A stretch of 64,000 nucleotides of DNA from Thermaerobacter marianensis (GTDB lineage Bacteria; Bacillota; Sulfobacillia; DVGY01): positions 1,240 through 65,239 of the forward strand of contig DYGY01000009.1 in the NCBI GenBank assembly GCA_020724425.1. Reading direction: 5' to 3'. The position numbers were made by a program, and so were the translations under genes. The notes beneath the pieces are model-generated. The model worked only from the letters and a program-made list of their open reading frames with translations. It had not been told where the DNA came from and did not search any database. Positions 18,770-44,324 of this stretch are shown piece after piece (position 1 is the first letter of the stretch; every line of letters begins with the position of its first letter).

Positions 18770-18822
18770 TTAGAGTATTCCCCATAACCTGGATAGAATG
18801 GTGTGAGGAAAGGGAATAGAGT

Positions 18823-19138: not shown

Positions 19139-20128
19139 ATGAAGGGAGCAAAGTGTCGGACATATATAATAGGTGTACTAGCTATTGTCGGGATGATTTT
19201 AATCAATGGGTGTACCATGCAAACTGAGCCTACAGAACCGAAAAAAGTAGTTCCCCATATTGAAAGATGGGGTATCTACTATTTAGATCTTTCTACCGAG
19301 CTTGTTGAACTTATTTACAGTACTGACAAGGAGATTAGCGGCATTAGTTTGGATCATACTGGTGAGAGACTTGCGTTTTCACTTAAAGGAAGTGCAGAAA
19401 TTCTTGATGCAAGTTCGGAAATTTATACCATCCATACAGATGGGGCGAAGCTACAACGTCTTACCAACAATAATCACTTTGATGCCTATCCCTCTTTTTC
19501 GTTAGATGGTTCAAAGATTGTTTTTCTTTCCAAGCGTAACAGTACATTGTCTCTTTATGTGATGAATATTGATGGGGATAAACAACAGAAACTGTATGAT
19601 TCGGGCGGGCATGATGCGGATGTCAATTGGGGAAGATGCGGACTTATTGTTTTTACCCGAAACCATCAGATATGGTCCTTAGAGTCGGATGGGACAGAAC
19701 CGAAACAAATAACTGATCCACCTAATACTGGCCAGTGGGGATCTGCAAATCTACCCATTGGAGATTATGATCCACGATTGAGTCCGGATTGCTCAAAAGT
19801 CCTTTTTGCGCGCTTGGAGGACCCTAATACAACCCATGGTGGCTACAATCTCTTTGTTATTAATGTAGATGGAACGGAAGAGACTCGCCTGACAAATAAT
19901 GGGTATACTCAGGGTATGCCAAGTTGGTCTCATTCAGGAGATAAAATTGCTTATGTCGTGGCTGCTATCAACAACCAAGGTAAATTTGATATACACATGA
20001 TGGATGCTAACGGAACGAATAATCACAAAATAACGCCGGACTACTTTCCTGATAATTTCTTAGCTCATCAGGCAATTTTCTCAACAGACGATGCTGGGAT
20101 TTTTTTTATTGGACAATGGTGGGAGTGA
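19139..20128 (+). CDS. TolB-like beta-propeller (PD40/WD40-like repeat) lipoprotein
   Basis: Lipobox LINGC. Repeated PD40-like motifs (SLDGSKIVFLS, SPDCSKVLFAR, SHSGDKIAYVV). Confidence 0.6.
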   Translation: MKGAKCRTYIIGVLAIVGMILINGCTMQTEPTEPKKVVPHIERWGIYYLDLSTELVELIYSTDKEISGISLDHTGERLAFSLKGSAEILDASSEIYTIHTDGAKLQRLTNNNHFDAYPSFSLDGSKIVFLSKRNSTLSLYVMNIDGDKQQKLYDSGGHDADVNWGRCGLIVFTRNHQIWSLESDGTEPKQITDPPNTGQWGSANLPIGDYDPRLSPDCSKVLFARLEDPNTTHGGYNLFVINVDGTEETRLTNNGYTQGMPSWSHSGDKIAYVVAAINNQGKFDIHMMDANGTNNHKITPDYFPDNFLAHQAIFSTDDAGIFFIGQWWE

Positions 20129-20341
20129 ATTAGTTGCTGGTGGCATATCAGGTACACATGACCCAGGACATTTATCGGTAAGGGTGAATGGGGTCTGGGG
20201 CGAACCCTAGCTGATCCTTTCCCAGTTCGCGGGAACGCCACGCTAGATGACGATGGCTGGCCATTATTATGAAGATGGTGTGATGATTAAGGCCGACATT
20301 TAACTAGCTTATAGAGAGCAATAATTCTTAGGAGACTCAAA

Positions 20342-21502
20342 ATGAAATCAAAACATATTATCGGCATTATATTGGTATTAACAATTGTCGGCGCTGTTCT
20401 TATGAGAGGTTGGACTGACCAACCAATCATTCCTGAACAAGAAGAAAATGAAACGATAAACTATCCTAGGATGGCTAGCTGGTTAGCCAAAAAGGAAGAA
20501 ATAATTAACAGTGAAAAACCATTTGATCTGGTAATGACAGGCTGGTTTACTCCAGAGGAGGCAAATAAGATCAGGTCGCAAAATCCTAATGCCCTTCTTC
20601 TTGCCGGTTTAACAGTGAATTGGATCTATGACGGTGAAGAATGGATGACACTTTTGACTACAGTGGCCAATTACGGCAGAGATAATGCTATAGAAATAAC
20701 TGAAGAGATGTATTTACACAACGTGAGTGGAGAAAGATGTGCTTTTGGATGGGCGTCCGAAGAATGGGGTCATGCTGAAATATATGCAATGGATCCAAGG
20801 AATGAGCAATGGATAGAACTTATCGTATCGTTTTATGAAACCGTTTTGAACCAACCCCAGCACGACGGCATTATAGTGGACATGGTTACAGAATGGTCTC
20901 CCTGCTCAGAGGCAATAAGTGGTGAAGAATGGGTAGAGGCAACTAAAGCAATCATGGAAAAAATAAAGAACCTCAATGGAGAAAACAAGTTGGTTATCTT
21001 TAATTCAGGTAGGGATATCTCCGAGATAGATGCGTATAAAGGCTATTTTGATGGTTATCTTATGGAGAACTCTCTTGGAAGCTGGGGTGTTACCTTTGAT
21101 GAGGCATTGGAAGAAGCAAAGAGCGGCTATACTATAATTTATGCTGTTGATACCGACGATACGGGGCAGGTAGACTTGTATAGAATGAGGCTAGGTCTAA
21201 CATTAAGCCTTCTTAACGACAACACCTATTTTGCATATGATCTAGGTCCCCGTGACCATGGTCAGGCATGGTGGTTTTCGGAATATGATGTAGACCTGGG
21301 TGAGCCCCTAGGGGAATATTACCAGAAAGATAATGCTTACTGGCGGGAGTTTGAAAAAGGATTTGTTGTCTCTTCTCCCTATGCTGAAATACATATTAAT
21401 TTTGCAAGAGAATATATGGATGTGACAACTGGGATAACGGCAAAATCATTTTTAATAGAACAGGGTGATGGAAGGATATTTATTGAATTTCTAAGCAATT
21501 GA
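20342..21502 (+). CDS. Secreted/membrane-anchored hypothetical protein
   Basis: N-terminal signal anchor MKSKHIIGIILVLTIVGAVLM. No recognisable domain. Confidence 0.45.
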   Translation: MKSKHIIGIILVLTIVGAVLMRGWTDQPIIPEQEENETINYPRMASWLAKKEEIINSEKPFDLVMTGWFTPEEANKIRSQNPNALLLAGLTVNWIYDGEEWMTLLTTVANYGRDNAIEITEEMYLHNVSGERCAFGWASEEWGHAEIYAMDPRNEQWIELIVSFYETVLNQPQHDGIIVDMVTEWSPCSEAISGEEWVEATKAIMEKIKNLNGENKLVIFNSGRDISEIDAYKGYFDGYLMENSLGSWGVTFDEALEEAKSGYTIIYAVDTDDTGQVDLYRMRLGLTLSLLNDNTYFAYDLGPRDHGQAWWFSEYDVDLGEPLGEYYQKDNAYWREFEKGFVVSSPYAEIHINFAREYMDVTTGITAKSFLIEQGDGRIFIEFLSN

Positions 21503-21519
21503 TTAAGGAGGAGAATAGA

Positions 21520-23979
21520 ATGATAATATCAGCAAAAAAACCCATCACGGCCATAATTGCCATTTTGCTCCTTCTTATCCTTGCATCGCTTATAATAAAG
21601 GACCCGGGAAGGGATACTGAAGGGATGCTTTTGCCTGGAGAAATGACCGTTACGCCCCTGCCTGAGGGAACGGACGAAGTAAGATTTCCCACTACTGAAA
21701 TCGGAACCATGAGCACTGTGGAAATCTTTCAGATAGAAAATACGGGACAAAAAGGGACAGGAGTATTTGACGTATCCCTGACGGGACCGGCATCCGGTAA
21801 TTTTATAATCCAGGGCCTTCTGGAAAACAAGAGCCTGGGACCGGGGGAAAATATTACATTTGCTGTTTACTTTATTCCTCAGGAGCCAGGTACACATACG
21901 GCATCCTTGTTAATAACAACCGAACTGAACGGTGTCAGGGAGAGTACGATCAATGTGACGGGAACAGCAGTCAGAAGTTTTGATTATCCGTTGCTTCCCC
22001 CGCGGTCCCCGGAACCGCCTGTGGCTGTTATTGCGGCCTTCGAAGGAGATAAGATCATGATAACCTGGAATGATGCTCCAAATGCTTCGCTGCCAGAGAG
22101 TTATAATCTTTATATTTCCTCTGAGCCGTTTCCGCCTGATAGTGAAATAAATTTTTCCGGCTCAAACTTGCCGAGCAATATTTCCAAGATTAGCAATGCC
22201 TCAAGACCGTATCTTCACTTAGATTATTCTCTAAACCAAACGCTTTATTTTGCGGTATCTTCCCAGAACGACATCGGGGAGGGAAGGTTATCGGAAACTG
22301 TATCCGTGAGGCCTTCAACAACATATTATGTCAGTTCCTTAAACGGTAATGACTCAAATGACGGCCTTTCTCCTAAAACTCCATGGAGAACGCTGGAAAG
22401 AGTTAATTCTCACCAGTTTAAACCGGGGGAGTTTATTCTTTTTGAAAAGGGGACCGAATATTTTGGCAGAATTGACGTCAAGCATTCAGGTCTAGACGGA
22501 ATGCCGATAACATACGGTGCCTATGGAGAAGGAGAAAAGCCCGTAATCAGTGGAATCGGTCAGGTACCAGGATGGGATGATCCGGGATCGTGGAATGAGG
22601 AAGGGGACAATATCTGGTCCATCTATTACGGCCCCTGGAAGATTGCAAACAGGCTCTGGCTTTCGGGCGAAGAATTCATGAAAGCAAAAGGACTTGATTA
22701 CATTGATTCAGTTTACATGTGGTATGCTGAGTATTTTGCTGATGAAGGGGAGAGCATAATTTATCTCTATTCCCAGGGCAACCCAGCAGAAAATTATACT
22801 GACATCAGGGAAGCCAGTGCCTTCGGAACCCCCTTTGTTTTTTGGAGTTCAGACCATATTACTCTTTCTGGCCTAGATATCAGGGGTGGAGGTAATAATA
22901 TGGATATTATCAGTTCCTCAAACCTGATTATTGAAGACTGCCTGATTGGTAATGGTGCAACAATGGGTATTAATGTTGTTGGTGTATGGACCGGATTAAC
23001 CGGTCCCGAAAGCCGTTCGGATAACGGCATTATTAGAGGTTCTGTTATCGACTCCGGTTTTCGCTTTGAATATAATTATCCGAATGTACAGACACAGGAT
23101 GGGATATTGATGACAGATAATGCCAGCGGCTGGAGAATATACGGTAATGAAGTCAGGGACTGGGGACACTCGGGAATAAACCTTATCCAGAGGACCGAGG
23201 GAACGGTGGTTGCAGCTAATCATATTTATGCCAATTATTTCACCTCCGAAGGGATTACCTATGGAAGAGCCTGGGAGGTTTCCGGAGAGCATAACGATGC
23301 GGAAAACAATCATTTTTACCATAATCTTGTTAAGAATACCTCCGTCCACATCCAGATTGGGGGATATAACAATTATGTTTATTACAATATTATTGATACT
23401 GTAAGAAACAGCCCCATAATGCCCTATCCTACAGGAAGCGGCATTGTGCTGATACCCGGAGTTGGCTCTAATAATAACAAAATATTCAATAATATTATCT
23501 ATAATACGGAAAGTGCGGGGATTGTGATTCCGGACTGGCATGGCAGTACCAGTACACGCTACAACGAAGTGTATAACAATATTATAATTAATTGTGGATG
23601 GGGAGCTGAGGAAACACTGCTTCATGCCGGAATTGCCTTAACCTATAGAAGTCACGTTGACGAGCCACCGGCCTCGGAATTTAACATCATAAAAAACAAC
23701 ATTGTTTACTCAGAGTATTCTGAAGCGGTGGCACACCATAGAGGTAACTTACTAACAATAGGTCAGTTTAATAACAAGAACGGCATACTGGGAGATACCA
23801 TCAGCGAAAATTATTTTTTTAACCCCGGGCTGGCTTCTTCCGATGAGGGAAATTATTTGCCTACAGTATTATTTATCATCATTGATAACGGGGTTACGGT
23901 GATGGAAACCTTTGATTTACTAGGAAACCCGGTGCCATCGGGAGAAAGGGCGGATATTGGTCCCTATGAATTTAGATGA
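21520..23979 (+). CDS. Right-handed parallel beta-helix repeat protein (pectate-lyase fold), N-terminal TM anchor
   Basis: Start ATG 21520 after AAGGAGGAG. N/G-rich PbH1-type repeats (NNIIYNTESAGIVI, NNIIINCGWGA, NNIVYSEY). About 820 aa. Confidence 0.6.
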   Translation: MIISAKKPITAIIAILLLLILASLIIKDPGRDTEGMLLPGEMTVTPLPEGTDEVRFPTTEIGTMSTVEIFQIENTGQKGTGVFDVSLTGPASGNFIIQGLLENKSLGPGENITFAVYFIPQEPGTHTASLLITTELNGVRESTINVTGTAVRSFDYPLLPPRSPEPPVAVIAAFEGDKIMITWNDAPNASLPESYNLYISSEPFPPDSEINFSGSNLPSNISKISNASRPYLHLDYSLNQTLYFAVSSQNDIGEGRLSETVSVRPSTTYYVSSLNGNDSNDGLSPKTPWRTLERVNSHQFKPGEFILFEKGTEYFGRIDVKHSGLDGMPITYGAYGEGEKPVISGIGQVPGWDDPGSWNEEGDNIWSIYYGPWKIANRLWLSGEEFMKAKGLDYIDSVYMWYAEYFADEGESIIYLYSQGNPAENYTDIREASAFGTPFVFWSSDHITLSGLDIRGGGNNMDIISSSNLIIEDCLIGNGATMGINVVGVWTGLTGPESRSDNGIIRGSVIDSGFRFEYNYPNVQTQDGILMTDNASGWRIYGNEVRDWGHSGINLIQRTEGTVVAANHIYANYFTSEGITYGRAWEVSGEHNDAENNHFYHNLVKNTSVHIQIGGYNNYVYYNIIDTVRNSPIMPYPTGSGIVLIPGVGSNNNKIFNNIIYNTESAGIVIPDWHGSTSTRYNEVYNNIIINCGWGAEETLLHAGIALTYRSHVDEPPASEFNIIKNNIVYSEYSEAVAHHRGNLLTIGQFNNKNGILGDTISENYFFNPGLASSDEGNYLPTVLFIIIDNGVTVMETFDLLGNPVPSGERADIGPYEFR

Positions 23980-24006
23980 CCAGACAGGGGATAGGGACTT
24001 AGAGAT

Positions 24007-24107
24007 TATATAAGTTTGATGGCTGTCTATACTCTACTAAATCGTGGCACAGTACATGTGATGAATGATGTTCCAGATAGGCTGGTAGCGGCCATCTTCA
24101 GGTACTA
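24007..24107 (+). repeat. Diverged (~85-90%) copy of the 3' end of the 17669-18769 gene
   Basis: ATGGCTGTCTATACTCT(A/A)TTAAATCGTGGCACAGTA...GCGGCCATCTTCAGGTACTAG is shared with 18680-18769. The homology continues into the rubredoxin genes. Confidence 0.8.
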
Positions 24108-24172
24108 GTTAGAGTATTTTCCTCATAACCTGGTTAGTATAGAGGTAATAGTGTGAGGAAAGGAAATAGAGT

Positions 24173-24343
24173 ATGGCCAAATATGTGTGTAGAGCTTGTG
24201 GTTATGAATACTTTGCTCCAGCTGGGGATATTATTGGTGTTTTTGCTCCTAAGACAGGGATAGATGATTTGCCAGATACATGGGTTTGTCCGGTCTGTGG
24301 AGCTGATAGGGAGAGTTTTGAAAAGGAAGAAGCCGATTTTTGA
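24173..24343 (+). CDS. rub: Rubredoxin
   Basis: 56 aa: MAKYVCRACGYEY...WVCPVCGADRESFE, two canonical CxxC(G) knuckles. Confidence 0.85.
   Translation: MAKYVCRACGYEYFAPAGDIIGVFAPKTGIDDLPDTWVCPVCGADRESFEKEEADF

Positions 24344-24406: not shown

Positions 24407-24424
<18 letters not shown>
24379..24424. terminator. Hairpin ATCGGCATAG...CTATGCCGAT + TTTT (bidirectional)
   Basis: 10-bp inverted repeat downstream of rubredoxin and of the recombinase 3' fragment. Confidence 0.5.
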
Positions 24425-26161
<1,737 letters not shown>

Positions 26162-26548: not shown

Positions 26549-26962
26549 CTAACCGTTGGTCTCGGTATTCATCTGAATTACCTTCACTACCTCCGGGCGG
26601 ATAAGTTTTCCGTCAATAAACTCAAAGGTAAGGTAACCCATCTGGTCGAGCAGGGCAAACTTCTCTGAGAGTGCCCTCACGCTGACAGGGCTTCTGCAGA
26701 TAACCCAGTAGTAGCTGAAATCACCGAATGCAATAGGCTTAGAACCGGACTCCATATCCGGCATAAACTCCGATATAAATACCTTTTTGCCAAGGATGGT
26801 ATCGTCGCTGTTGCGCCAGAGGTAGTTTGCGGCTTCATCAGTCATTGTGCGAAGGGCAAGGGCTGTGTCGCACATGGCATGGGCGTACTCATCGGAATAG
26901 TAAGTGTGCTGCGGTCGCAGCAGAGTACCTTCCTTATTCATTTTCATAAGTGGATAATTCAT
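26549..26962 (-). CDS. Hypothetical protein of the integrated element (137 aa)
   Basis: Clean ORF in the GC-richer island. No recognisable motif. Confidence 0.4.
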   Translation of the reverse strand: MNYPLMKMNKEGTLLRPQHTYYSDEYAHAMCDTALALRTMTDEAANYLWRNSDDTILGKKVFISEFMPDMESGSKPIAFGDFSYYWVICRSPVSVRALSEKFALLDQMGYLTFEFIDGKLIRPEVVKVIQMNTETNG

Positions 26963-28503: not shown

Positions 28504-29436
28504 TCATTTTAGCCCGGCTTTATACATCAATTCTTCTATAATAACCCTATATTTTAAAATGTGCGGCTTAATATCTTGCTGGGTGGTGTTAAACCAAATT
28601 TTATGGGCTGAATAATTGCCGAGATCCTTAAATAGTACCATGTCCTGACAAGTATTTGCTGACAGTGCCAAAGTGGTATTTTGCTCCGCATTTCTGATTA
28701 TTTTATCAAGGGTTGAGTGCCGCCCACTGTTTCCGGTGATTTCCTCCTCAATACCAAGGTTTTGGTATGATAGTACCAAAAGCCCTTCTAATAGCCGCCT
28801 CATCATCACTGCTGTACAGTCAAAGAGATTATTCTCATAACTCGCGTTAATCTGCTTGCATAAGGATCGAATATTAGGCGAGAGGTTTTCGAAAATTGGA
28901 GTTGGAAGAATCGTTCCGTCTTGCTCAATACTAGTTTTGTCTTCATCTTCCCAGTGGTTTATATCATCAATCCATTTTTCCATAGCATCAGACCATTGCG
29001 ACCAATTTCGAGATGAATTGATCAGCCTGTTTACTTCAGTCTGTAAATCCTTCAAAATTTGGTTATCTGTCCAGCCTGATTTTCTTAGGGCTAATATGTA
29101 TCTGTAAAGGATATCATCTACTTTATAATCATTCCAATATGCATATATTTTTTTGCACTTGTTCTTGATATGGGATATCTCTTGGTCAATAGGGTTTTGA
29201 GACCTGTTGTAAGCTATTCCCCCAAGCTTGTTTAAAAATTCATTAACTGATTCTTGAGTTAAGGCTCCATCTTTGTCATAATGAAAATACTGTTTTATGC
29301 CAATATCAATGCATTCAATCAGCAGTTCATATGGATACTTCCTAATGACTTGTGCCAATTGTGCTTTGCCCCTCTCGTTAAGCGAATATGGCGCTATTTT
29401 TTCATTCACCATGCTTTCAATCTTTTTACGCCCCAT
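28504..29436 (-). CDS. DUF4145-like domain protein (Abi-like accessory gene of type I R-M loci)
   Basis: C-terminal region (ANTCQDMVLFKDLGNYSAHKIWF) resembles DUF4145. The gene is markedly AT-richer than the neighbouring hsd genes. Confidence 0.45.
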   Translation of the reverse strand: MGRKKIESMVNEKIAPYSLNERGKAQLAQVIRKYPYELLIECIDIGIKQYFHYDKDGALTQESVNEFLNKLGGIAYNRSQNPIDQEISHIKNKCKKIYAYWNDYKVDDILYRYILALRKSGWTDNQILKDLQTEVNRLINSSRNWSQWSDAMEKWIDDINHWEDEDKTSIEQDGTILPTPIFENLSPNIRSLCKQINASYENNLFDCTAVMMRRLLEGLLVLSYQNLGIEEEITGNSGRHSTLDKIIRNAEQNTTLALSANTCQDMVLFKDLGNYSAHKIWFNTTQQDIKPHILKYRVIIEELMYKAGLK

Positions 29437-29447
29437 AAAGATTTACC

Positions 29448-30791
29448 TTATTTCAATTTCTCACAAAGAGGCAGGACTTCTTCGATTTTAGCAACAATGC
29501 GCTTTTGCTCAGCAAGGGGAGGGAGGGGAATCAATTGCTGTTTCAGCAGTACATAATGTCGTGCATATCCTCTGTTTCTCAACTGCCCTGAAGCATATAT
29601 CATCCAATAATACAGGAACTTGGGATATACAAGGATGCCTTTGTGAAATTTAGTGCCATCCGCTCCAATCACGAAAGGAAAATCGATATACTTCACATTC
29701 CTTGTATGATCTCCAAACATAACCAAAGGCAGATCATTAATAACTTTCTCCCTTTGGTTTGTATAACCGTCAATAAGTGACTGGCCCTGGCTAACTACAG
29801 GAAAATCGCCTTCCGGCGATATTTCCTTGGTTTGAATCTGATTTTCTCTGTTACCGACTGCATAAGTAACACTCTCAATTTTTGTCCAAAACCAGCTCTC
29901 CGGAATATCAAACGGTATCTCATCCTCTGAAATTTCAGGTAATGGCTTTTCTTTTTTGATTTTACCTTCCTTGATGAGTCGCTGCTTTTCGGCCTGAATC
30001 TGTTGATAAAGTTCCTCGCCAGTTCCTTCCTCCGGGCGCTGTTCGACCAGTTTGCCCTGGATTGCCAACTGGAGGATGGATTTCTGCAGGTCGCTCGGAA
30101 AACGCTTATTAAGCTCCTCCAACTTGTTCCATGCCTTTTCATAGCGATCTACATACGGTAGCAATTCTTCGATTTTAGCAACAATGCGCTTTTGCTCAGC
30201 AAGGGGAGGGAGGGGAATCAATTGCTGTTTCAGCAGTACATAATGTCGTGCATATCCTCTGTTTCTCAACTGCCCTGAAGCATATATCATCCAATAATAC
30301 AGGAACTTGGGATATACAAGGATGCCTTTGTGAAATTTAGTGCCATCCGCTCCAATCACGAAAGGAAAATCGATATACTTCACATTCCTTGTATGATCTC
30401 CAAACATAACCAAAGGCAGATCATTAATAACTTTCTCCCTTTGGTTTGTATAACCGTCAATAAGTGACTGGCCCTGGCTAACTACAGGAAAATCGCCTTC
30501 CGGCGATATTTCCTTGGTTTGAATCTGATTTTCTCTGTTACCGACTGCATAAGTAACACTCTCAATTTTTGTCCAAAACCAGCTCTCCGGAATATCAAAC
30601 GGTATCTCATCCTCTGAAATTTCAGGTAATGGCTTTTCTTTTTTGATTTTACCTTCCTTGATGAGTCGCTGCTTTTCGGCCTGAATCTGTTGATAAAGTT
30701 CCTCGCCAGTTCCTTCCTCCGGGCGCTGTTCGACCAGTTTGCCCTGGATTGCCAACTGAAGAATGCTGTTTTTCAATTCCTGTGGGGTCAT
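29448..30791 (-). CDS. hsdS: Type I restriction-modification specificity subunit HsdS with two identical target-recognition domains
   Basis: 447 aa. Conserved HsdS spacer motifs (LPPLAEQKRIVAKIEE). Residues about 7-226 are repeated exactly at about 237-447. Confidence 0.85.
   Translation of the reverse strand: MTPQELKNSILQLAIQGKLVEQRPEEGTGEELYQQIQAEKQRLIKEGKIKKEKPLPEISEDEIPFDIPESWFWTKIESVTYAVGNRENQIQTKEISPEGDFPVVSQGQSLIDGYTNQREKVINDLPLVMFGDHTRNVKYIDFPFVIGADGTKFHKGILVYPKFLYYWMIYASGQLRNRGYARHYVLLKQQLIPLPPLAEQKRIVAKIEELLPYVDRYEKAWNKLEELNKRFPSDLQKSILQLAIQGKLVEQRPEEGTGEELYQQIQAEKQRLIKEGKIKKEKPLPEISEDEIPFDIPESWFWTKIESVTYAVGNRENQIQTKEISPEGDFPVVSQGQSLIDGYTNQREKVINDLPLVMFGDHTRNVKYIDFPFVIGADGTKFHKGILVYPKFLYYWMIYASGQLRNRGYARHYVLLKQQLIPLPPLAEQKRIVAKIEEVLPLCEKLK
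29478..30756. repeat. Perfect 690-bp direct tandem duplication inside hsdS (copy 1 about 29478-30167, copy 2 about 30168-30756)
   Basis: CTTCGATTTTAGCAACAATGCGCTTTTGCTCAGCAAGGGGAGGGAGGGG... occurs at 29477 and again at 30167. Identity continues for about 590 bp until 30757. Confidence 0.9.
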
Positions 30792-32275
30792 TCTTTAGTA
30801 CCTCCTAAAAGAGCCGTAATTTCGGCAAGTACACGGTCAATTTCCGCATTCAAAGATGCACGTTTCTCCTCGTATCGCTGAATCAGATCCATCGGGTCAA
30901 GAATCTCTTCCTCCTCATGGGGATAGCCGCACAGGTCGAGGTTATAACCAAAATCATCTGTAAGCTGCTTTACTGTGTATTTTTTCGCCTTATCGAAGCC
31001 GTCTATATTGATTTCCTGCCTGTTATTCCACCATTCAATGACCGGGGCAAAATGCTCTAACTTCATTGGCTTTGTCTTGGAGAAATGCTTGTAACCCTCC
31101 GGCATATCCAGACGGTAGTACCATGTTTCCGTGGTAGGCCCTGTACGGTCAAAGAATAAAAGGTTTGTAGTTATTGACGTGTAGGGCGAGAACACGCTGC
31201 CCGGTAAACGGATTATAGTATGCAGATTAAACTCGGATAGCAGTTTCTTTTTGATGGCAACCTTGGCATTGTCAGTGCCGAACAGGAATCCGTCCGGGAG
31301 AATTACCGCCGCACGACCGTTTTTCTTTAGGCGGTACATGATAACAACCATAAACAAATCCGCCGTTTCACTGCTGGTAAGATCAGATGGGAAGTGGTTT
31401 TTTACATCAGCCTTTTCACTACCGCCGTACGGGGGATTCATTAAAATAACGTCGAACTGGTCATCTTCCGTGTAATCCAGCACATCACGCAGCAGGGAGT
31501 TTTCATGGTAGATTCTGGGCACGTCCAGACCATGCAGCAGCATATTGGTAATGCACAGCATATACGGAAACTGCTTCTTCTCAATGCCGTAGATGGAATC
31601 ATCATATTTAACCCGGTCATCCGTTGTCTTTATTTGGGGCGCCAGTTCCTTCAGCCAGCTAACAATAAAGCCACCAGTACCGCAGGCAAAGTCCGCCATC
31701 CGCCCACCAATTTTCGGCTGTATCATTTTGGCCATAAAATCCGTGACCGCACGGGGCGTATAAAATTCACCGGCAGAACCTGCGCTCTGCAATTCACGCA
31801 GGATGGATTCATAGATTTCGCCGAATGCGTGGCTCTCCTCATAATCGCTTAAATCCAGTTCATCGATGACGTTGATGACCTGACGAAGCAATACACCATC
31901 CTTCATATAGTTGTTAGCGTCCTCAAAAGTAGTTTTAACAATAGATTTCTTAAGAGGAGTATCTGGTGTAACATTAAGATTCTTCAATGTAGGAAACAGG
32001 GTATTGTTGACAAAGTTCATCAGAGTATCGCCGGTCATAGCTTTGCCGCTTTTATCATCCACAGCCCAATTTCTCCAACGACACTCTTCCGGAATGATGG
32101 ACTGATAATTATCATCATCTATTTCCCAGTCATCTTCTCTGGTATCATATATCTTTAAAAACAGCATCCATGAAAGCTGCTCTATCCGTTGTGCATCACC
32201 ATTAATACCGGCATCATTGCGCATAATGTCACGAATTCTTTTTATAAAATTCGATAAACTGCTCATATTAATCAA
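30788..32275 (-). CDS. hsdM: Type I R-M DNA methyltransferase subunit HsdM (N6-adenine)
   Basis: N6-MTase motif IV NPPYGG (ILMNPPYGGSEKAD), motif I region DFACGTGGF, N-terminal HsdM-N domain. Confidence 0.9.
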   Translation of the reverse strand: MINMSSLSNFIKRIRDIMRNDAGINGDAQRIEQLSWMLFLKIYDTREDDWEIDDDNYQSIIPEECRWRNWAVDDKSGKAMTGDTLMNFVNNTLFPTLKNLNVTPDTPLKKSIVKTTFEDANNYMKDGVLLRQVINVIDELDLSDYEESHAFGEIYESILRELQSAGSAGEFYTPRAVTDFMAKMIQPKIGGRMADFACGTGGFIVSWLKELAPQIKTTDDRVKYDDSIYGIEKKQFPYMLCITNMLLHGLDVPRIYHENSLLRDVLDYTEDDQFDVILMNPPYGGSEKADVKNHFPSDLTSSETADLFMVVIMYRLKKNGRAAVILPDGFLFGTDNAKVAIKKKLLSEFNLHTIIRLPGSVFSPYTSITTNLLFFDRTGPTTETWYYRLDMPEGYKHFSKTKPMKLEHFAPVIEWWNNRQEINIDGFDKAKKYTVKQLTDDFGYNLDLCGYPHEEEEILDPMDLIQRYEEKRASLNAEIDRVLAEITALLGGTKE

Positions 32276-34614
32276 CCTGCCTTGTAAATTTCTTCTTCTA
32301 ATTCCTTAATTGCTCTGAGATATCCATCCTTACCGCCGAAGAATTGTGCAATCCTTGAAGGTTTGCCAAATTTCTGAAACGGATCAAGCTTTAAAATCTC
32401 AGTTTTCTCGATTTCGTATATCCCGGCGTTCATATACTTATCCAAAAGAGCCTCCAGCACCTCGCGAGCTGCGCCCTTATACTTATTTAAGAAATCACGC
32501 TTCTTGACATTATTGGCGCGTTCTTGGCGCGTCAGCGGTTTCTGGTCAAACGCAACATGACAGATAAAATCAAAATCGTCCACATCCGCCATATTCCGAT
32601 CTGCTTTCAGATTTTCCAGGTTGATGCCGCGCTCCAAAAACAAGGCCCTGATGTTTTCTTTCTTCTCCTCGACAGACCAATGGCGGATAAAATTATCTAG
32701 AGAAGCATATGTACCCAAAACATTTGACTTGGTGTAATCGATAATGCTTTCCTGCCGAAGCAGCTTACCGTTAGCGTCATAAACAGAAACAATCTTGCCG
32801 ATTATTTCAACCTTACAACCGTTTGCATCAACAATAGGCTTTTCTTTCGGTTCTGAGTCTGGGCCATAAGGTGTATCAGGGCCAGGTTCGGAAATATGAC
32901 TGTCGCCTTTACCGTAATTGTCATCTTGCTCAATGGGGCCATCCCACTCTGGATCAGCAAACAGGCGCGTCACATTACGAAAGTCCATGACCACAAAGTG
33001 TGTTTTTCCTTCCTTCTCACGAACCCGGGTACCACGTCCGATAATTTGCTTGAATTCAGTCATAGAGCCTATCATCTGGTCAAGGACAATCAGTTTAGTC
33101 ATCTTGCAGTCAGCGCCAGTAGAAAGGAGCTTAGATGTTGTTGCAATAACCGGATATGGGGAAGAAACAGAGATGAAATAGTCGAGTTTGCTCTTGCCGT
33201 ATGAGTTACTGCCGGTTATGCGAACCACGTAATCGGGATTCTGCTTGACCATATCGGCGTTTAGGTTGTTAAGCGCAATCCGCATCCGTTCGGCGTGATC
33301 CTCGTTGGCGCAGAACACAATCGTCTTCTGCATTCTGTCAGTACTTTTCAAGTATTCCGTAATCTCTTTGGCAACCTCATATGTACGGTCTTCGATGATG
33401 ATTTTGTAGTCAAAGTCACTGTTTGTATAAATACGGTCTTCAATCTCATTGCCGTTCTTGTCCCGCTGGCCTTTATATGGACGCCAGCCTTCACCAATGT
33501 TGGTGCGGATATTGATAACCCTAAACGGAGCAAGGAAACCGTCTTCGATACCTTCACGGAGACTGTAAGTGTATATTGGCTCTCCAAAATAATCAATATT
33601 GGAGATATATTTTGTTTCCTTCGGAGTAGCAGTCATACCAATTTGCGTAGCTGACGAGAAATATTCGAGAATCTTGCGCCAGTTGCTGTCTTTTTTCGCT
33701 GACCCGCGATGACACTCATCTACGATGATGAGGTCGAAGAAATCCTTATGGAACAGCTTGGCAAGACGGCTGACGGTTTCGTCTTCATCGCTTTCGCACT
33801 CGTCATCCTCCCGGTCTGTCAACTGCTGATACAGAGAGAAATAGACCTCATAGGAGGTGACGGTTATAGGATCATCCTTGGCAAAATTGATTTTATGAAT
33901 CGTTTTCGCCAACGGTGCAAAATCTTGCTGAATCGACTGATCAACAAGAATGTTGCGGTCAGCAAGATAAAGTACCTTTTTCTTGATGCCACTCTTTAAC
34001 AGGCGATAGACAATCTGGAAAGCAGTGTATGTCTTGCCGGTGCCGGTTGCCATGACAAGTAGAATCCTCTGCTGTCCCCTGGCGATAGCTTCTACCGTGC
34101 GGTTGATAGCATTGCGCTGATAATAGCGCGGTGGGTATGTTGTCTGGCTTGTGTAGTAGGGCTGATCTATGATTTGCTTTTCGTTGTCAGTCAGACCTAC
34201 ATCCATCTGATACCGGTCTATTAATTCATCAGGAGAGGGAAACTCGGACAAAGGAATCTCTCGTTCCTGGCCGGTTATAAAGTCATGCTCATAAAAAGCG
34301 TCACCATTAGAACTGTAGGCAAAAGGCACATCAAGCATCCGGGCGTAGGTCATGGCCTGTTGCAAGCCGTATGATACAGTGTGGTTGTTGTCCTTTGCCT
34401 CAACTATGGCAATGGGTTTATTTGGATTTATATAAAGAATATAGTCAGCCTTTTTCGGCTTTTCACGGAACACAAAATTTCCCTTTAGGTTAATCTTACC
34501 TTCCGTGATTTTTGTTTCCATCGTTATATGGTCAAGGCTCCATTTAGCGGTGATTGCCGGAGTGATATATCGGAGCTTGATATCTTCTTCGGTCATCAGT
34601 TTTTTATCAATCAT
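32272..34614 (-). CDS. hsdR: Type I restriction enzyme R subunit HsdR
   Basis: N-terminal PD-(D/E)xK nuclease region (IVEAKD), SF2 helicase motifs LVMATGTGKT (I) and IVDECHR (II). 780 aa is a shorter-than-average HsdR. Confidence 0.85.
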   Translation of the reverse strand: MIDKKLMTEEDIKLRYITPAITAKWSLDHITMETKITEGKINLKGNFVFREKPKKADYILYINPNKPIAIVEAKDNNHTVSYGLQQAMTYARMLDVPFAYSSNGDAFYEHDFITGQEREIPLSEFPSPDELIDRYQMDVGLTDNEKQIIDQPYYTSQTTYPPRYYQRNAINRTVEAIARGQQRILLVMATGTGKTYTAFQIVYRLLKSGIKKKVLYLADRNILVDQSIQQDFAPLAKTIHKINFAKDDPITVTSYEVYFSLYQQLTDREDDECESDEDETVSRLAKLFHKDFFDLIIVDECHRGSAKKDSNWRKILEYFSSATQIGMTATPKETKYISNIDYFGEPIYTYSLREGIEDGFLAPFRVINIRTNIGEGWRPYKGQRDKNGNEIEDRIYTNSDFDYKIIIEDRTYEVAKEITEYLKSTDRMQKTIVFCANEDHAERMRIALNNLNADMVKQNPDYVVRITGSNSYGKSKLDYFISVSSPYPVIATTSKLLSTGADCKMTKLIVLDQMIGSMTEFKQIIGRGTRVREKEGKTHFVVMDFRNVTRLFADPEWDGPIEQDDNYGKGDSHISEPGPDTPYGPDSEPKEKPIVDANGCKVEIIGKIVSVYDANGKLLRQESIIDYTKSNVLGTYASLDNFIRHWSVEEKKENIRALFLERGINLENLKADRNMADVDDFDFICHVAFDQKPLTRQERANNVKKRDFLNKYKGAAREVLEALLDKYMNAGIYEIEKTEILKLDPFQKFGKPSRIAQFFGGKDGYLRAIKELEEEIYKAG

Positions 34615-34835
34615 GTATTATCACTCCTTTCCGCATCCGGAATGTAGTCCATGATATCACCATAATTACAACCAAGTGTGCTGCAAATCTTATCCAAAAC
34701 ATTAAGCATGACTGCCTCATCCCGACGCAGTTTAGTCATGGTGTTTGGGGATATGCCAGAGGCTTTACGCAAGTCTGCCTTGCTCATTTTCTTATCCACA
34801 AGCAGTTTCCAAAGTTTATTGTATGAAACAGCCAT
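34611..34835 (-). CDS. XRE-family helix-turn-helix transcriptional regulator (possible controller of the hsd operon)
   Basis: 74 aa, MSKADLRKASGISPNTMTKLRRDE = HTH_3 motif. Its stop overlaps the hsdR start (ATGA). Confidence 0.75.
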   Translation of the reverse strand: MAVSYNKLWKLLVDKKMSKADLRKASGISPNTMTKLRRDEAVMLNVLDKICSTLGCNYGDIMDYIPDAERSDNT

Positions 34836-34885
34836 AATTAAGCCTCCAATGCCATATTTTAGAACATTATATCACACAGCCAATA

Positions 34886-34901
34886 ATCTCTCAAGACCTT
34901 G
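34886..34901. promoter_or_regulatory. Palindromic operator-like site TCTCAAG-AC-CTTGAGA upstream of the HTH-hsdR operon
   Basis: Perfect 7-bp inverted repeat about 50 bp upstream of the HTH gene start, in the promoter region. Confidence 0.4.
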
Positions 34902-34938
34902 AGAAGAATTCGCAAAATAAGATTAAGTCCAAAAAGAA

Positions 34939-34980
34939 AGACTGCACTAAAGGTTTTATCCTTCGGTGCAGTCTTTGTTG
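34939..34980 (-). terminator. Rho-independent terminator of the histidine phosphatase gene (minus strand)
   Basis: AGACTGCAC...GTGCAGTCT hairpin with a T-run on the minus strand (AAAAAGAAAG on plus). Confidence 0.6.
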
Positions 34981-35066
34981 TCGAGCCTCCACTTGAAGAG
35001 AGTCGGTCAAAAATTTACTTGTTTTCGCAAATCCCTATGACTAACTCCCTTTTGAGGGCTTCTTCC

Positions 35067-35681
35067 TTACAGATGGGGAGTCAGGTTTAGGTCCTGTACT
35101 TCCCATTTTCCATTCTTATGGGTTACCAGGGTAAGAGAGGTGTTATCTACCCGGAGATGGGTCTTTTCATAGGGATGCATGTCCTGAATATGGCCAACAA
35201 AGCTACGAATTGCACCTCCGTGGGTCAGGACAATGGCAGGTTGATTTTTCTTGGCAATATCCTCTAGGGCTGCTTGGATTCTTGAAAGGAATTGTCTGTC
35301 TGATTCTCCACCACCTGGTCTTGGTATATTCCAGGGGTCTTTACGCCAGTTAATTAAGAAGTCACTGTAGCCTGATTGTATCTCTTCCCAGGTTAGTCCC
35401 TGCCAGGCGCCCACATGGATTTCCCTGAGGCGGTTATCTATAGAGATCTCTAGGGGTGGGCTGTGTTCTTTAGCGATGAGATCTGCTGTATCATAGGCCC
35501 TTTTAAGATCACTTGAGTATATCAGGCTGGCAGGATACTCTTTGAGGTAGTCTGCTAGTTTCTGTGCTTGTTCTTCTCCGGTTTTGTTAAGGGGTACATC
35601 CCAGTGTCCCTGGTATCTTCCTGTAGCGTTTGCTTCTGTTTCTCCATGTCTTATCAACAGTATTTCTGGTATTTCCCTCAC
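35067..35681 (-). CDS. Histidine phosphatase family protein (phosphoglycerate mutase/CobC-like)
   Basis: LIRHGETEAN (RHG catalytic motif), about 200 aa. Confidence 0.8.
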   Translation of the reverse strand: MREIPEILLIRHGETEANATGRYQGHWDVPLNKTGEEQAQKLADYLKEYPASLIYSSDLKRAYDTADLIAKEHSPPLEISIDNRLREIHVGAWQGLTWEEIQSGYSDFLINWRKDPWNIPRPGGGESDRQFLSRIQAALEDIAKKNQPAIVLTHGGAIRSFVGHIQDMHPYEKTHLRVDNTSLTLVTHKNGKWEVQDLNLTPHL

Positions 35682-35687
35682 CTCTTT

Positions 35688-36971
35688 TCACCTATTAGTA
35701 TAACCTTGTTGGTATTGACTGGCCAGTATATTTAGTGCTTCCAATAGTTCTAAAGTGAACTCTTGAGAGGTTAGCTCCTTTTTGAGTAGCTTTAGTATGA
35801 GAGGTGGGAGGATATCCTGATATAGAGTGATTTCTAAGACTCTTAGATCTGGGTTAGCATGATACTTAGGGTAGAGTTGAGTTGAATGATCCTGCCAGCC
35901 TGGATTAAGGCCATAGTCTGCCCAAGAGATAACTTCTTGGGGATCTAAATATGAGGGAATGACATTGAGTTCTTTAGCAAAGAAGGTTGTTTCATAGCGA
36001 CTGAAGAAACGGGCAAACTCAATGGCTGCTCTTGTATGGTCACTCCCCTTATAGTTTTCCTGGCGAAAGATGAGGAGATGGCTTCCCTGAATAAAGGCAT
36101 AGTTATTGAGAATCTCCTTAGTATTAAGGGAGTTGGTGTTTGCTGCTGGCAAGAACAGGGCTCTCTCTGTGACAAATAGTTGGTGGGCTTTCTCTGAGAT
36201 GACTAGAGAGTTAGTGCTGTTTAGTTCTAAAAGAAGTTCTGCTGTTTCCTGTATCGTAGCTTCACTCCAAGCAGGGGTACCATTAGGTTGAAAGGGATAT
36301 GGTTGTTTTAGGAGAGTTATTAGATCTCTAAAGAGTTCACCTGTTTGGAGAGGATGGTATACCAGCCCATACTGGGCTTTGCTCTTTGAAAGGATATTGG
36401 GGATGTTATCAAAATCCCAGGGTGAGAGGTCTTCAGTATATTCGTGTTTAGTTATATAGGCGGAGTAGTTAAGCCAGCGAGGAAAGCCCCAGAGATGATC
36501 AGCATAGGTGACTTCTTTTAGTGCTGCGGGGAGATAGCTGGTCAGTTCTTCGCCGGAAAGATAACCATCAATAGGTATCTGTAGGGAAGATAGAACCGGA
36601 CCATGATAGAGATTAGTATATACATCAGGGGGATTACCTTTCTTAAGGGCTTCAGCTAGTTTTTCCTCTGCTTTGGCAGGAGAGATAAGGATGTATTCAA
36701 CGAAGATATTAGGGTAGAGAGCAGAGAAGTCTTTTAGGGCTTCACTTACAAGATCCATATAGCGGGTATTAACTAGGAGTTGATCCGGACTCTGGATATC
36801 TTGAGTAGCTGTTAAGGGAATGAGTTGATCCCAAAAGACTATTTGGTATTCCTTTTCGGGATCAATGTTGGCGAAATGATCTATAGCCGCGTTATCCTCT
36901 GGTGAAGAGGAAAATGAAAACCAGACTAATATCAGTGCTAGCAAGAAAAGGAAATATCTAAGGTATTGCAT
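35688..36971 (-). CDS. Secreted protein, possible extracellular solute-binding-like protein
   Basis: N-terminal signal anchor. 427-aa size and composition are compatible with family-1 SBPs, but there are no adjacent permeases. Confidence 0.35.
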   Translation of the reverse strand: MQYLRYFLFLLALILVWFSFSSSPEDNAAIDHFANIDPEKEYQIVFWDQLIPLTATQDIQSPDQLLVNTRYMDLVSEALKDFSALYPNIFVEYILISPAKAEEKLAEALKKGNPPDVYTNLYHGPVLSSLQIPIDGYLSGEELTSYLPAALKEVTYADHLWGFPRWLNYSAYITKHEYTEDLSPWDFDNIPNILSKSKAQYGLVYHPLQTGELFRDLITLLKQPYPFQPNGTPAWSEATIQETAELLLELNSTNSLVISEKAHQLFVTERALFLPAANTNSLNTKEILNNYAFIQGSHLLIFRQENYKGSDHTRAAIEFARFFSRYETTFFAKELNVIPSYLDPQEVISWADYGLNPGWQDHSTQLYPKYHANPDLRVLEITLYQDILPPLILKLLKKELTSQEFTLELLEALNILASQYQQGYTNR

Positions 36972-36983
36972 TTTACCACCCCG

Positions 36984-37718
36984 TTAATCTTTTAATCCCA
37001 GGAGGTAGAAGAATTCCTGGTCTGCTTTACCGGTTAAGGGCTGCTGGTAGAAGAGTTGAGCTTCTTTTATGGCTATGGTTGTTTGGGGACCGAAGTAGCC
37101 ATCGATATTACCTGGGTTAAATCCTAGTGCTCTTAAGCGATGCTGAAGGATTAATACGTCTTTTCCTGTGGAGCCTTCCTTTAAGTTTCGGTTAAAGGAA
37201 GACTCAGGCAAGGCACCATGGAAAACCACTTTGGTACCTAGAGGGATCATCTCAAATAGTTCTTCTACCTGTTTGTTATGCATTCTGATGCAACCAGCAC
37301 TTTCATTATCACCAATAGTCCAGGGTTCATCTGTACCGTGGATTCCATAGATACCCCAGGGTACATTAACTCCCAACCAGCGAGTACCAAAGCCACCACC
37401 CCAGTCTTTGCTTTTTGAGATAATTCTGAATTCACCAACTGGCGTTGGGGTCTCTGGTTTACCAATTGCCACTGTATATTCCTTTTCAAGGACATTATCG
37501 ATATAGACCTGTAATTTCCGTTTATCTAAATCTACGGCTATGAGATAATGGGAGGGGTCCTGCTTATCTTCTGGAGCTAAGGTTAACCAGGTTAGCTGAT
37601 TCTCCATAACCAATGGATAGGTTAACAGGAAAGGTGCTCCATAATAGGGGCTGGCTAGAAGAAGAATAGCTAATGTCACAAAAGCGACAATCTTTGACAT
37701 AATATCACCTACCATCAA
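36984..37718 (-). CDS. L,D-transpeptidase (YkuD domain) with C-terminal peptidoglycan-binding domain
   Basis: Catalytic motif HGT...GCIRM. C-terminus LQHRLRALGF...DGYFGPQT = PG_binding_1. Confidence 0.85.
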   Translation of the reverse strand: MMVGDIMSKIVAFVTLAILLLASPYYGAPFLLTYPLVMENQLTWLTLAPEDKQDPSHYLIAVDLDKRKLQVYIDNVLEKEYTVAIGKPETPTPVGEFRIISKSKDWGGGFGTRWLGVNVPWGIYGIHGTDEPWTIGDNESAGCIRMHNKQVEELFEMIPLGTKVVFHGALPESSFNRNLKEGSTGKDVLILQHRLRALGFNPGNIDGYFGPQTTIAIKEAQLFYQQPLTGKADQEFFYLLGLKD

Positions 37719-37796
37719 TGTCTAAACATATATCTATGTGAGGATTAGTGTAATTATGAAGAGGGAAAACGGGGTCAGGGGATAAATATACAGGAG

Positions 37797-38267
37797 GTGA
37801 GAGTTTTGCTTAATATTGTTCTGGTTGAACCAGAGATTCCTCAGAATACAGGGAATATTGCTAGGACCTGTGTGGTAACAGGGGCTAAGCTGCATCTTGT
37901 AGGGCCTTTAGGCTTTTCGATAGATGATCGTTCCCTAAAAAGAGCTGGTATGGACTACTGGCAGGATCTTGACTGGCAATACTATTCAAGCTTACAGGAG
38001 TTTATGGAAAGCTATCCTGAGGGAAGATTCTGGTATCTATCCACCAAGGGAAAGAAGAACTATACAGATGCCTCTTTCACAGAGACTGATTTCTTGGTTT
38101 TTGGTAAGGAAACTGCGGGACTACCAAAGGATCTTCTAGCTAGCAATGAGGAAAGGGTTATCAGGATTCCCATGAAACCTGATACAAGATCTTTGAACTT
38201 ATCTAACTCTGTAGCTATTGTCCTTTATGAAGCTCTAAGACAGGTTGGTTTTAAGTCACTTTTTTAG
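37797..38267 (+). CDS. trmL: tRNA (cytidine/uridine-2'-O)-methyltransferase TrmL (SpoU family)
   Basis: LNIVLVEPEIPQNTGNIART... plus the SPOUT knot region. The likely true start is TTG 37806, 9 nt after GGAGG. Confidence 0.85.
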   Translation: MRVLLNIVLVEPEIPQNTGNIARTCVVTGAKLHLVGPLGFSIDDRSLKRAGMDYWQDLDWQYYSSLQEFMESYPEGRFWYLSTKGKKNYTDASFTETDFLVFGKETAGLPKDLLASNEERVIRIPMKPDTRSLNLSNSVAIVLYEALRQVGFKSLF

Positions 38268-38277
38268 GGGGACTCAT

Positions 38278-39138
38278 ATGAGGGTAGCGACTGTTCAGTT
38301 AATCAGACAGGGGAGTATAAGGCAGGAAGACCTGATTATAATCCTTGATGCAGTTATCAAGAAGTCTAAAAGATATGGGGCAGGGCTTGTTGTTTTGCCA
38401 GGACAGGTAGGGCTTTTGATTGGTGAAGCTTTAAAAGGCAAAGAGATATTGGAACCAGATGATGTTTCCTTTCAGGGTATAGATACTGTCTATCATGCCT
38501 GGAGCAAACAGTTTGCTACATACTACAATATCTCTTTAACTTTGGGTTCATACTGGGTAGAGGAAGAAGAACTTTTTAGTGTGGCCTATCTGTATAACCA
38601 GAAGGGAGAGGTTCTTTTAAAACAGGGGCAGATTCAGCTTTCAGAGAAAGAGAGATCCTGGGGTATAAAGCCGTATCAAGAGATAAATGTGGCAGAATTT
38701 CAGGATGGGTATGTTCTTGGTTTTGCTTTAGGTTTAGATAACTATGCACCTGAACACTACCGTATTCTTAATCTGCAGGGAGCTAATTTGGTACTGGGTC
38801 TTTCCACTGAGTGGGGTATGAATGATCAGCTAGCAGGTATCTGGCAGCTGGTTCAGCAGAATCAGGTATATGCCCTAGAGAGTTCCCTTGTGGGTGATAT
38901 GGTGTCTGGAGGGCTTGGCATCTTTGGTCCCTGTGAGATAACTCCTTTAGAGTCTGGAGTTATCTGTGATGGTTCTGCTCTGGTAGAAGAAAGACCTGTA
39001 GACATGGAGATTCAGGGGAATAGTTTGCAGGCGAGAATCTGTATGGCTGACCTGTCTTTAGAGAGTCTTTTAGGAATTAGGAAGAGCTATCCCATTAATG
39101 ACCTGTATAATGTGCAGCTTTACAGGAGGTGGCTCTGA
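38278..39138 (+). CDS. Carbon-nitrogen hydrolase (nitrilase superfamily) homolog lacking the catalytic Glu/Cys (pseudoenzyme?)
   Basis: Alignable to the downstream paralog, but VVLPGQ replaces VVFPE and no Cys is found at the expected GxxxC position. ATG 38278 after GGGGGA. Confidence 0.5.
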   Translation: MRVATVQLIRQGSIRQEDLIIILDAVIKKSKRYGAGLVVLPGQVGLLIGEALKGKEILEPDDVSFQGIDTVYHAWSKQFATYYNISLTLGSYWVEEEELFSVAYLYNQKGEVLLKQGQIQLSEKERSWGIKPYQEINVAEFQDGYVLGFALGLDNYAPEHYRILNLQGANLVLGLSTEWGMNDQLAGIWQLVQQNQVYALESSLVGDMVSGGLGIFGPCEITPLESGVICDGSALVEERPVDMEIQGNSLQARICMADLSLESLLGIRKSYPINDLYNVQLYRRWL

Positions 39139-40235
39139 TGGGTTTTCTTGCTAACCTAAAGGATTATGCAGGCAGACAGTGGTTAGAATACTTGACTAAG
39201 TCAGACCGGGTGCTAAGAAGGTTAGATCATCTAGAGAGGAACCTACCTTGGCAGGAAAATGAGGTGGAGCAGACTAGAGTTGCTGCCATTCAGGCTGAAT
39301 TGGTTTTTGTAAATAGGGTTGAACCCTATGTGGATATTATGTATTTGGCGTGTAAGGAAGCTAAAGAGAAGGGTGCTAAACTTGTTGTATTCCCTGAGGA
39401 CAATGGGACCCATCTCTTGGGGCTCTTACCTGGATTCAATAGGTTGATTAAATCTCTTGATGGGGGCAAGATATCTGTTGGTAAAGAGGAAATATTGATT
39501 GCTGATGTTTTTAGGTATGCAGGTCCCTACACAGAGAGAGTATATCTAACCCTGTTTTCTGAATTAGCAAAAAGGTTTAGGATGTATGTCCATGGGGGTA
39601 GTGTGATTCTACCTAGAACAGATGGTAAGGTGTATAATACTGCTTTTCTTTTTGGACCGGATGGGAAGGTTCTTTTAAGACAGGATAAGCTGCATCTGAT
39701 GCCAATGGAGGTGGAATGGGGCTTAACTCCTGGAAGTATTGTTGAGGTTGTTGATACTGAGTTAGGTAGGATAGGTATGCCTGTCTGTATGGATGCCACA
39801 TACTTTGAGACTTTTAGGATTCTTTCTAATATGGGGGCAGAAATAATTCTTTTGCCAACTGCCAATCCTGAGGAATATAATCGGTTTAAGGCTTTACGGG
39901 GAATCTGGCCAAGGGTGCAGGAAACACCTGTATATGGAATAAGGAGCAGTATGGTTGGCTCTTTGGCAGGTTTTAAGCTTACAGGAAAGGCAGGCATTTT
40001 TGCTCCTAGAGAACTAACAGAGAAAAGAGATGGGATTTTGGCTGAGTTTGCCAATCCAGAAGGGGTTGGCTTAGTATTTGCAGATCTGGATATGCCGGGT
40101 TTAAGAGCCTACAGGGAAAGAACTAGAACAGAACAGGTAGATGCCCAAAGGATATATTCCAGATATTTGCCTAGAATTTATAAGGTAGGTGCAGAGGATG
40201 CGGAAGATACTGACAGTACCAGAAGAGATCACTGA
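39129..40235 (+). CDS. Carbon-nitrogen hydrolase family protein (nitrilase/amidase-type)
   Basis: E-K-C triad context: LVVFPED, RQDKLHLMP, GMPVCMDATYFE. Confidence 0.7.
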   Translation: MALMGFLANLKDYAGRQWLEYLTKSDRVLRRLDHLERNLPWQENEVEQTRVAAIQAELVFVNRVEPYVDIMYLACKEAKEKGAKLVVFPEDNGTHLLGLLPGFNRLIKSLDGGKISVGKEEILIADVFRYAGPYTERVYLTLFSELAKRFRMYVHGGSVILPRTDGKVYNTAFLFGPDGKVLLRQDKLHLMPMEVEWGLTPGSIVEVVDTELGRIGMPVCMDATYFETFRILSNMGAEIILLPTANPEEYNRFKALRGIWPRVQETPVYGIRSSMVGSLAGFKLTGKAGIFAPRELTEKRDGILAEFANPEGVGLVFADLDMPGLRAYRERTRTEQVDAQRIYSRYLPRIYKVGAEDAEDTDSTRRDH

Positions 40236-42965: not shown

Positions 42966-43016
42966 CCTCGAATTAGAGTTTTTCCTATCGGGGAAACTCT
43001 AGACGAGGTGATTTGA

Positions 43017-43418: not shown

Positions 43419-43456
43419 ATGGTGCCCAGTTCTCTAGATACCATGATATAATATAG

Positions 43457-44308: not shown

Positions 44309-44324
44309 AAAGGGGGTTCCTGAG

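Follow-up and report, generated by a model that had tools for sequence, protein, structure and literature searches.

The window, a stretch of 64,000 nucleotides, carries on its minus strand a four-gene restriction-modification (R-M) cassette that ends in an hsdS gene of unusual internal symmetry (Table 1). Its restriction subunit scores 1095.1 bits over the full length of NCBIfam NF046051, the EcoAI/FtnUII equivalog (cut-off 550); hsdM reaches 93.5 bits on TIGR00497 (cut-off 242.75), and hsdM and hsdS both fall below every curated equivalog cut-off in NCBIfam. The genes are tightly packed, with overlaps of 4 nt between the HTH gene and the start of hsdR and between hsdM and the start of hsdS, and hsdM is called at the same 492 aa in three further contigs (L003-L005). 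Its domain matches mark the cassette as a complete Type I system of the EcoAI group (Type IB). It resembles that group in that its hsdR passes the EcoAI/FtnUII equivalog and in that hsdR, hsdM and hsdS are all present, but it differs in its gene order, HTH-hsdR-hsdM-hsdS, and in the small HTH gene attached to it. The HTH gene lies upstream of hsdR in every related locus, and these loci stand in quite different chromosomal contexts; its 74-aa product may be the controller protein of a mobile R-M cassette.

The 310-aa gene that follows hsdS in the window occupies the same position in L104, L105 and L107-L116. In L095 (11206-12117) and L098-L102 that position is taken by an AbiJ-like gene of 303 aa, the L095 copy of which is recognised by PADLOC at 4e-83. 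A direct comparison of the 310-aa and AbiJ-like proteins found no similarity between them, and the position after hsdS looks like an exchangeable cargo slot.

Table 1. Genes of the cassette and parts of hsdS, in window coordinates.
Feature	Position	Strand	Evidence or remark
310-aa gene	28504..29436	-	11 nt downstream of hsdS; no Pfam, NCBIfam or PADLOC match
hsdS, specificity subunit, two TRDs	29448..30791	-	447 aa, ATG start
C-terminal unique codons VLPLCEKLK (9) + stop	29448..29477	-	homologous to the start of B
Repeat unit R, C-terminal slot (TRD2)	29478..30071	-	identical copy; translation
TRD core, C-slot copy	29520..29895	-	same comparison with relatives
Central conserved region B, 31 aa, LLPYVDRYEKAWNKLEELNKRFPSDLQKSIL	30072..30164	-	sole non-repeated interior stretch
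Repeat unit R, N-terminal slot (TRD1)	30165..30758	-	100% identical to 29478-30071, offset 687
TRD core, N-slot copy	30207..30582	-	R positions about 177-552; part specific to this recognition domain
N-terminal unique codons MTPQELKNSIL (11)	30759..30791	-	homologous at protein level to the end of B
hsdM, N6-adenine methyltransferase, 492 aa	30788..32266	-	PF02384 (N6_Mtase) + PF12161 (HsdM_N); PADLOC MTase_I 5e-177
hsdR, EcoAI/FtnUII-family restriction subunit, 780 aa	32272..34614	-	ResIII + EcoEI_R_C domains
Cro/C1-type HTH gene (HTH_26), 74 aa	34611..34835	-	PF13443 1.6e-23

The product of hsdS is matched twice by Pfam PF01420 (Methylase_S, 1.5e-17) and by the PADLOC Specificity_I model (2e-125), and it resembles, weakly and in the helix region, the S subunits of known structure from EcoKI and EcoR124. 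An offset scan of the gene revealed 594 nt that recur without a single mismatch at a distance of 687 bp, or 229 codons, so that the repeat is in frame and the two copies encode the same 198 aa. No comparable identical run exists within hsdS at offsets of 684 or 690. A general repeat search returned the same pair in a shorter form, and Tandem Repeats Finder missed it because the longest period it considers is 500. The preliminary description had reported an hsdS reading frame with two identical target-recognition domains (TRDs) in a perfect, in-frame repeat, and the intact frame, the uninterrupted run, the codon-multiple period and the paired Methylase_S matches agree with this. Its estimate of about 590 bp of identity came close to the exact tract of 594 bp, whereas its period of 690 bp must be corrected to 687 bp.

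Three pieces of the gene lie outside the repeat, namely the 93 bp between the copies and the two ends, and the gene therefore reads, in its own orientation, as the MTPQELKNSIL codons (A), unit R, spacer B, unit R again, and the VLPLCEKLK codons with the stop (C). Each unit comprises the end of a conserved helix with a long conserved linker, a TRD core of about 125 aa, and the opening part of the conserved helix that follows (LAEQKRIVAKIEE). The limits of the core were placed where relatives depart from the window, and the tract is unchanged in relatives that carry it in the N slot and in those that carry it in the C slot. An N terminus of the MTPQELKNSIL type is common to all relatives, the terminal pieces and B match the corresponding parts of related alleles, and B is 96.8% and 90% identical at the nucleotide level to the central regions of L099 and L104. 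Since B and both gene ends match those of normal relatives, the layout is the standard one for a two-TRD specificity subunit and contains no new junction. The tandem duplication proposed in the preliminary description thus does not describe the gene: the 93-bp spacer is an ordinary central conserved region, and the standard layout implies that the event was the replacement of a TRD in one slot. Birth of the gene by duplication of a half-size hsdS was considered and rejected as well, because the middle of B, YEKAWNKLEELNKRF, is absent from both gene ends and B as a whole is the relatives' central region. The window gene is likewise not itself a half-size, single-TRD hsdS, being 447 aa long with two TRDs.

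Conserved repeats flank both slots in the hsdS genes of relatives, and this sets the level of internal similarity to be expected in the family. In eight relatives the linker that precedes each domain forms an intragenic repeat with 76-89% identity over ~170-200 nt, and the helix that follows each domain one with 87-96% identity over ~50-60 nt. An exact repeat of 594 nt is far above chance and above this family norm.

The TRD of the window is not confined to one slot among its relatives. The 21 closest proteins, which are 66-72% identical to it overall, carry the window TRD with 129-130 identical residues out of 135; 18 of them have it in the C slot (P0017-27, P0031-37) and three in the N slot (P0028-30), and the partner TRD in those 21 is always a different one. 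The same TRD twice was found in 0 of the 119 protein matches examined. Eight JGI contigs (L006-L013), found with a degenerate TRD pattern, contain unit R at 93-95.6% nucleotide identity to the window; L006 and L011 have it in the N slot, the other six (L007-L010, L012, L013) in the C slot. Between L006 (N slot) and L012 (C slot) the unit has zero differences across R positions 160-551, while their hsdM genes are only 90% identical, and this contrast means that the TRD core moved between slots and between lineages recently. Two other TRD types, here called K and Y, also occur in both slots of cassettes whose hsdR is 95.6% identical in nucleotides to that of the window: K in the C slot of L095, L098, L100, L102 and L110 and in the N slot of L104, L105 and L107, Y in the C slot of L111, L113 and L116 and in the N slot of L115. 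The preliminary description had proposed a comparison with related hsdS alleles and had suggested that the gene might be a snapshot of specificity switching; the comparison supports this, in that the window TRD, K and Y each switch slots and relatives carry the same unit in either one.

The family also contains alleles that depart from the usual pair of different TRDs. A half-size hsdS of 223 aa, with TRD K alone, lies at 9824-10495 of L094 (GCA_900198705.1, FZPS01000179.1, a contig of 2.56 Mb), in a cassette whose hsdR is 95.6% identical to the window's; it may have arisen by a true deletion or represent a collapsed twin. It is the sole true half-size allele among the apparent candidates, those in L030, L045, L050 and L066 having proved to be the second halves of frameshifted or split genes. 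Among ~45 full-length hsdS genes adjoining hsdM homologues in GTDB genomes, a single one has similar halves, that of L072 (~4368-5780 of CALXSV010000209.1, Clostridia MAG E12__bin57), where they are 84% identical in nucleotides and 83% in amino acids over 614 nt, with a period of 753 nt and 97 mismatches. So many mismatches mean that the diverged twin cannot be an assembly loop, and the example shows that same-TRD alleles both occur and persist in this hsdS family. The L072 gene is like that of the window in its gene family, its unit boundaries and its use of one TRD type in both slots, but its twin, now diverged, is old or was independently assembled, whereas the window's is exact. Altogether TRD1 equals TRD2 in 2 of the ~185 alleles examined, a count drawn from samples that are not independent. 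Short ENA contigs also encode three family members, P0048 (744 aa), P0064 (722 aa) and P0056 (621 aa, cut), in which three different TRDs alternate with two central regions; they reflect either chimeric assembly through the conserved regions or genes that really have three domains.

A perfect repeat of this length raises the question of whether the two copies are present in the organism. The exact hsdS protein is a singleton and derives from one NCBI contig of 65,632 bp. A gapped exact pattern covering window 29860-30299 was used as the probe for contigs that run from TRD core across B to TRD core, and none was found in JGI metagenome, GTDB genome or IMG/VR contigs; the degenerate TRD pattern had no match in IMG/VR. 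A homology search with the junction segment returned matches that were all of at most 392 aa, and the query's own protein was missing among them.

The gene is reached by three short-read assemblies, from the same strain or one nearly identical to it, and all of them stop just inside the outer edges of R. In JGI 3300029893, the contig that approaches from the hsdM side (L003) ends 79 nt inside R, at window 30680, and the contig from the downstream side (L001) begins 77 nt inside R, at window 29554; both are 100% identical to the window. Their reach into R is slightly unequal, 79 nt as against 77 nt. A Logan contig of SRR5011275, present on the hsdM side only and also 100% identical to the window, ends 30 nt inside R, as do Logan contigs of SRR9997720 on both sides; Logan assembles with k=31, so that 30 nt is k-1. 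In a de Bruijn graph, contig ends about one k-mer inside R are the signature of a sequence that is entered from, or left to, two contexts. That the locus is a hotspot for assembly trouble, as had been predicted, is plain from these breaks in the JGI and Logan contigs. Because all three assemblies branch at R, a single-copy A-R-C gene is excluded for those samples. The 77 nt on the C-terminal side include ~26 nt that are specific to the window TRD, and this TRD must accordingly occupy the C slot and also continue into something besides the C terminus; in the NCBI contig, the N-slot copy of R runs on into B. Over the first 77 nt of the unit, the window has one sequence at the N slot and at the central position, where aligned relatives have copies that differ within the gene. 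These breakpoints favour a real R-B-R structure, with which they fit without amounting to proof, and we hold it quite probable that the two-copy arrangement is real in the organism.

The strain sampled in SRR9997720 is distinguishable from that of the window. Its contig L004 differs from window 30729-44614 at 44 positions, 43 of them in the chromosomal flank 36228-44130 and one in the cassette, at position 33052. The R-M cassette is thus more alike between the two strains than its surroundings are.

The best-placed alternative, which we nevertheless regard as unlikely, is that an assembler collapsed near-identical variants and threaded a path A-R-B-R-C that no single molecule carries, the variants being alleles or strains of the community with the unit in different slots, or parts of a tangled graph of related cassettes. 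Such a mis-threaded path would likewise yield a perfect repeat with its edges at branch points. The arrangement is present in one contig only and three other assemblies fail to pass the region, the cassette family is common and multi-allelic in biogas-type metagenomes, and the chimera-like three-TRD proteins P0048, P0056 and P0064 from short contigs suggest that chimeric paths do arise. On the other side, the relatives that carry the window TRD are only 93-96% identical to it in the unit and 79-90% in hsdM, and no alternative TRD was found attached to the flanks of this strain. The contig breaks are also harder to explain in this way: the 77 nt of the window TRD's own end in the C-side JGI contig place R in the C slot, and since the first 77 nt differ between the slots of aligned relatives, a heterologous allele would not stop the hsdM-side contig where it does stop. 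The same pattern of breaks recurs in a second strain and sample, and L072 provides a natural, diverged twin.

It is very improbable, by comparison, that the repeat is real and its copy number wrong, whether as a half-size A-R-C gene acting as a homodimer or as a gene with more than two units. The family does contain a half-size allele of 223 aa (L094), and short-read graphs are unable to count the turns of a loop. Yet a single-copy gene has no branch, and the assemblies break at the edges of R; B can appear only if R is joined to it on both sides; and three or more TRDs misfit the M2S1 architecture.

If, as we think, both copies are real, they most likely arose when one slot was recently overwritten, non-reciprocally, with the content of the other. 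The whole unit, from the linker through the TRD to the beginning of the following helix, would be transferred by gene conversion ('domain movement'), with the conserved stretches on either side of each slot priming homologous recombination between misaligned hsdS copies; a crossover within B between alleles that hold the unit in opposite slots would be an equivalent route. That the two copies agree throughout their 594 nt indicates a recent event. With an inter-strain divergence of 0.3-0.5%, about two differences would be expected were the copy as old as the split between the strains, a deficit that is not significant. The complete identity also leans towards a copy made within the gene rather than an imported allele; no other hsdS allele was found on this strain's background. 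A search for a signature of the slot of origin in the conserved linker found none, the linker being a mosaic among relatives without slot-specific bases. The earlier suggestion of a recent duplication or gene conversion is in this way narrowed to its second half: conversion or intragenic recombination is the best origin, and a junction of the kind a new duplication would leave is missing. As an account of the locus as a whole, we think it probable that this is a canonical two-domain hsdS of the EcoAI family in which one unit fills both slots as the result of copying and which would read a palindromic target.

In Type I specificity subunits, each TRD reads one half-site. Transferred to the other slot, a TRD recognises the reverse complement (PMC3983042), and a dimerised half-HsdS, engineered from S. 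aureus CC398-1, methylates the palindrome ACC N5 GGT (PMC6158711). Taken together, one half-site per TRD, the reverse-complement rule and the half-HsdS palindrome lead us to expect a rotationally symmetric split target for the twin HsdS, in agreement with the symmetric bipartite site proposed in the preliminary description. One S subunit with two identical TRDs, spaced by normal central and terminal helices, would bind two HsdM, and m6A methylation, with restriction by HsdR, would fall on a site composed of the half-site, a spacer and the reverse complement of the half-site.

The presence of the same TRD in both slots of a specificity gene is a known and already published phenomenon of domain movement (DoMo), described in Type I and Type IIG specificity genes of Helicobacter pylori (Furuta et al. 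2011, PMC3077401; Furuta et al. 2014, PMC3983042). There, the Type IIG S gene HPV225_1544 carries one TRD in both of its slots, genes with a single TRD are known as well (PMC3077401), and a palindromic Type I-like motif, RGA N7 TCY, is known from strain F32 (Furuta et al., PMC3077401/PMC3983042). The window family shares with the H. pylori system the occurrence of one TRD in TRD1 or TRD2 according to allele and the presence of intragenic flanking repeats. Unlike it, the window belongs to an uncultured Bacillota-like host from digester-type metagenomes and to a cassette of the EcoAI family, and its copies are 100% identical over the full 594-nt unit with the conserved flanks included. A second parallel is given by half-size or truncated HsdS proteins that act as homodimers, among which EcoDXXI, deletion mutants of EcoR124I and NgoAV are cited in PMC10030836. 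These too would place two identical TRDs in each methylase complex, and the family has a natural 223-aa form of its own in L094. In the window, by contrast, both TRDs lie in one polypeptide of 447 aa with an intact central region, so that S need not dimerise and the normal central helix fixes the spacing.

The original description of domain movement did not settle its mechanism (PMC3077401). That the twin allele is real and also a fresh intermediate of domain movement is a reading to which we give slightly less than an even chance. If it is true, slot switching in hsdS proceeds by a copy step that moves a whole 594-nt unit together with its conserved flanks, and this step passes via a symmetric, palindrome-reading enzyme before the other slot is replaced. 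A real twin would in any case be a clean natural example, from an uncultured anaerobe, of a new Type I specificity obtained by the reuse of one recognition module, with a conversion tract so far unblurred by mutation and end points that can be read directly. It predicts a palindromic split m6A motif, which is open to testing, and reads that confirm the arrangement, together with such a motif, would make the locus a remarkably clear record of the step in which domain movement copies a unit. The twin allele leaves the knowledge of Type I systems unchanged. The locus is also one at which short-read metagenome assemblies break or may thread wrongly, and MAG-derived hsdS alleles of this family should therefore be treated with care.

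The least probable of the alternatives, with hardly any likelihood in our view, is that the twin is one state of a programmed, recombinase-driven hsdS shufflon, as in Mycoplasma or the pneumococcal ivr/tvr loci: hsdS alleles are very diverse and fragments of a serine recombinase (24407-26137) lie 3.3 kb downstream of the gene, but tblastn and blastn found no second hsdS or silent cassette in the 64-kb window, the recombinase is a large serine enzyme of integrase type that is broken, accompanied by TnpW and a capsid fragment, and absent from related cassettes, and the one inverted-repeat pair (I1) is no inversion site, because one and the same imperfect palindrome, which lies within each R copy, makes up both arms, and these are only 77% complementary. 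A phase-variable shufflon was accordingly rejected for want of a second hsdS, an inversion site and a dedicated recombinase.

The recombinase region (24407-26137 and 26549-26962, both on the minus strand) has some features of its own. The large serine recombinase is fragmented in the window as it is in the JGI contig L001, whereas in the Logan contig L002, which shows a 1-nt gap difference, the part with the recombinase domain forms one ORF of 353 aa. TnpW and a phage capsid fragment of 137 aa adjoin the split gene, and the region looks like a decaying integrated element beside the R-M cassette. Further from hsdS, a direct repeat of ~250 nt with 87.6% identity (18655-18893 and 23994-24243, 5.3 kb apart) flanks the genes at 19139-23979.
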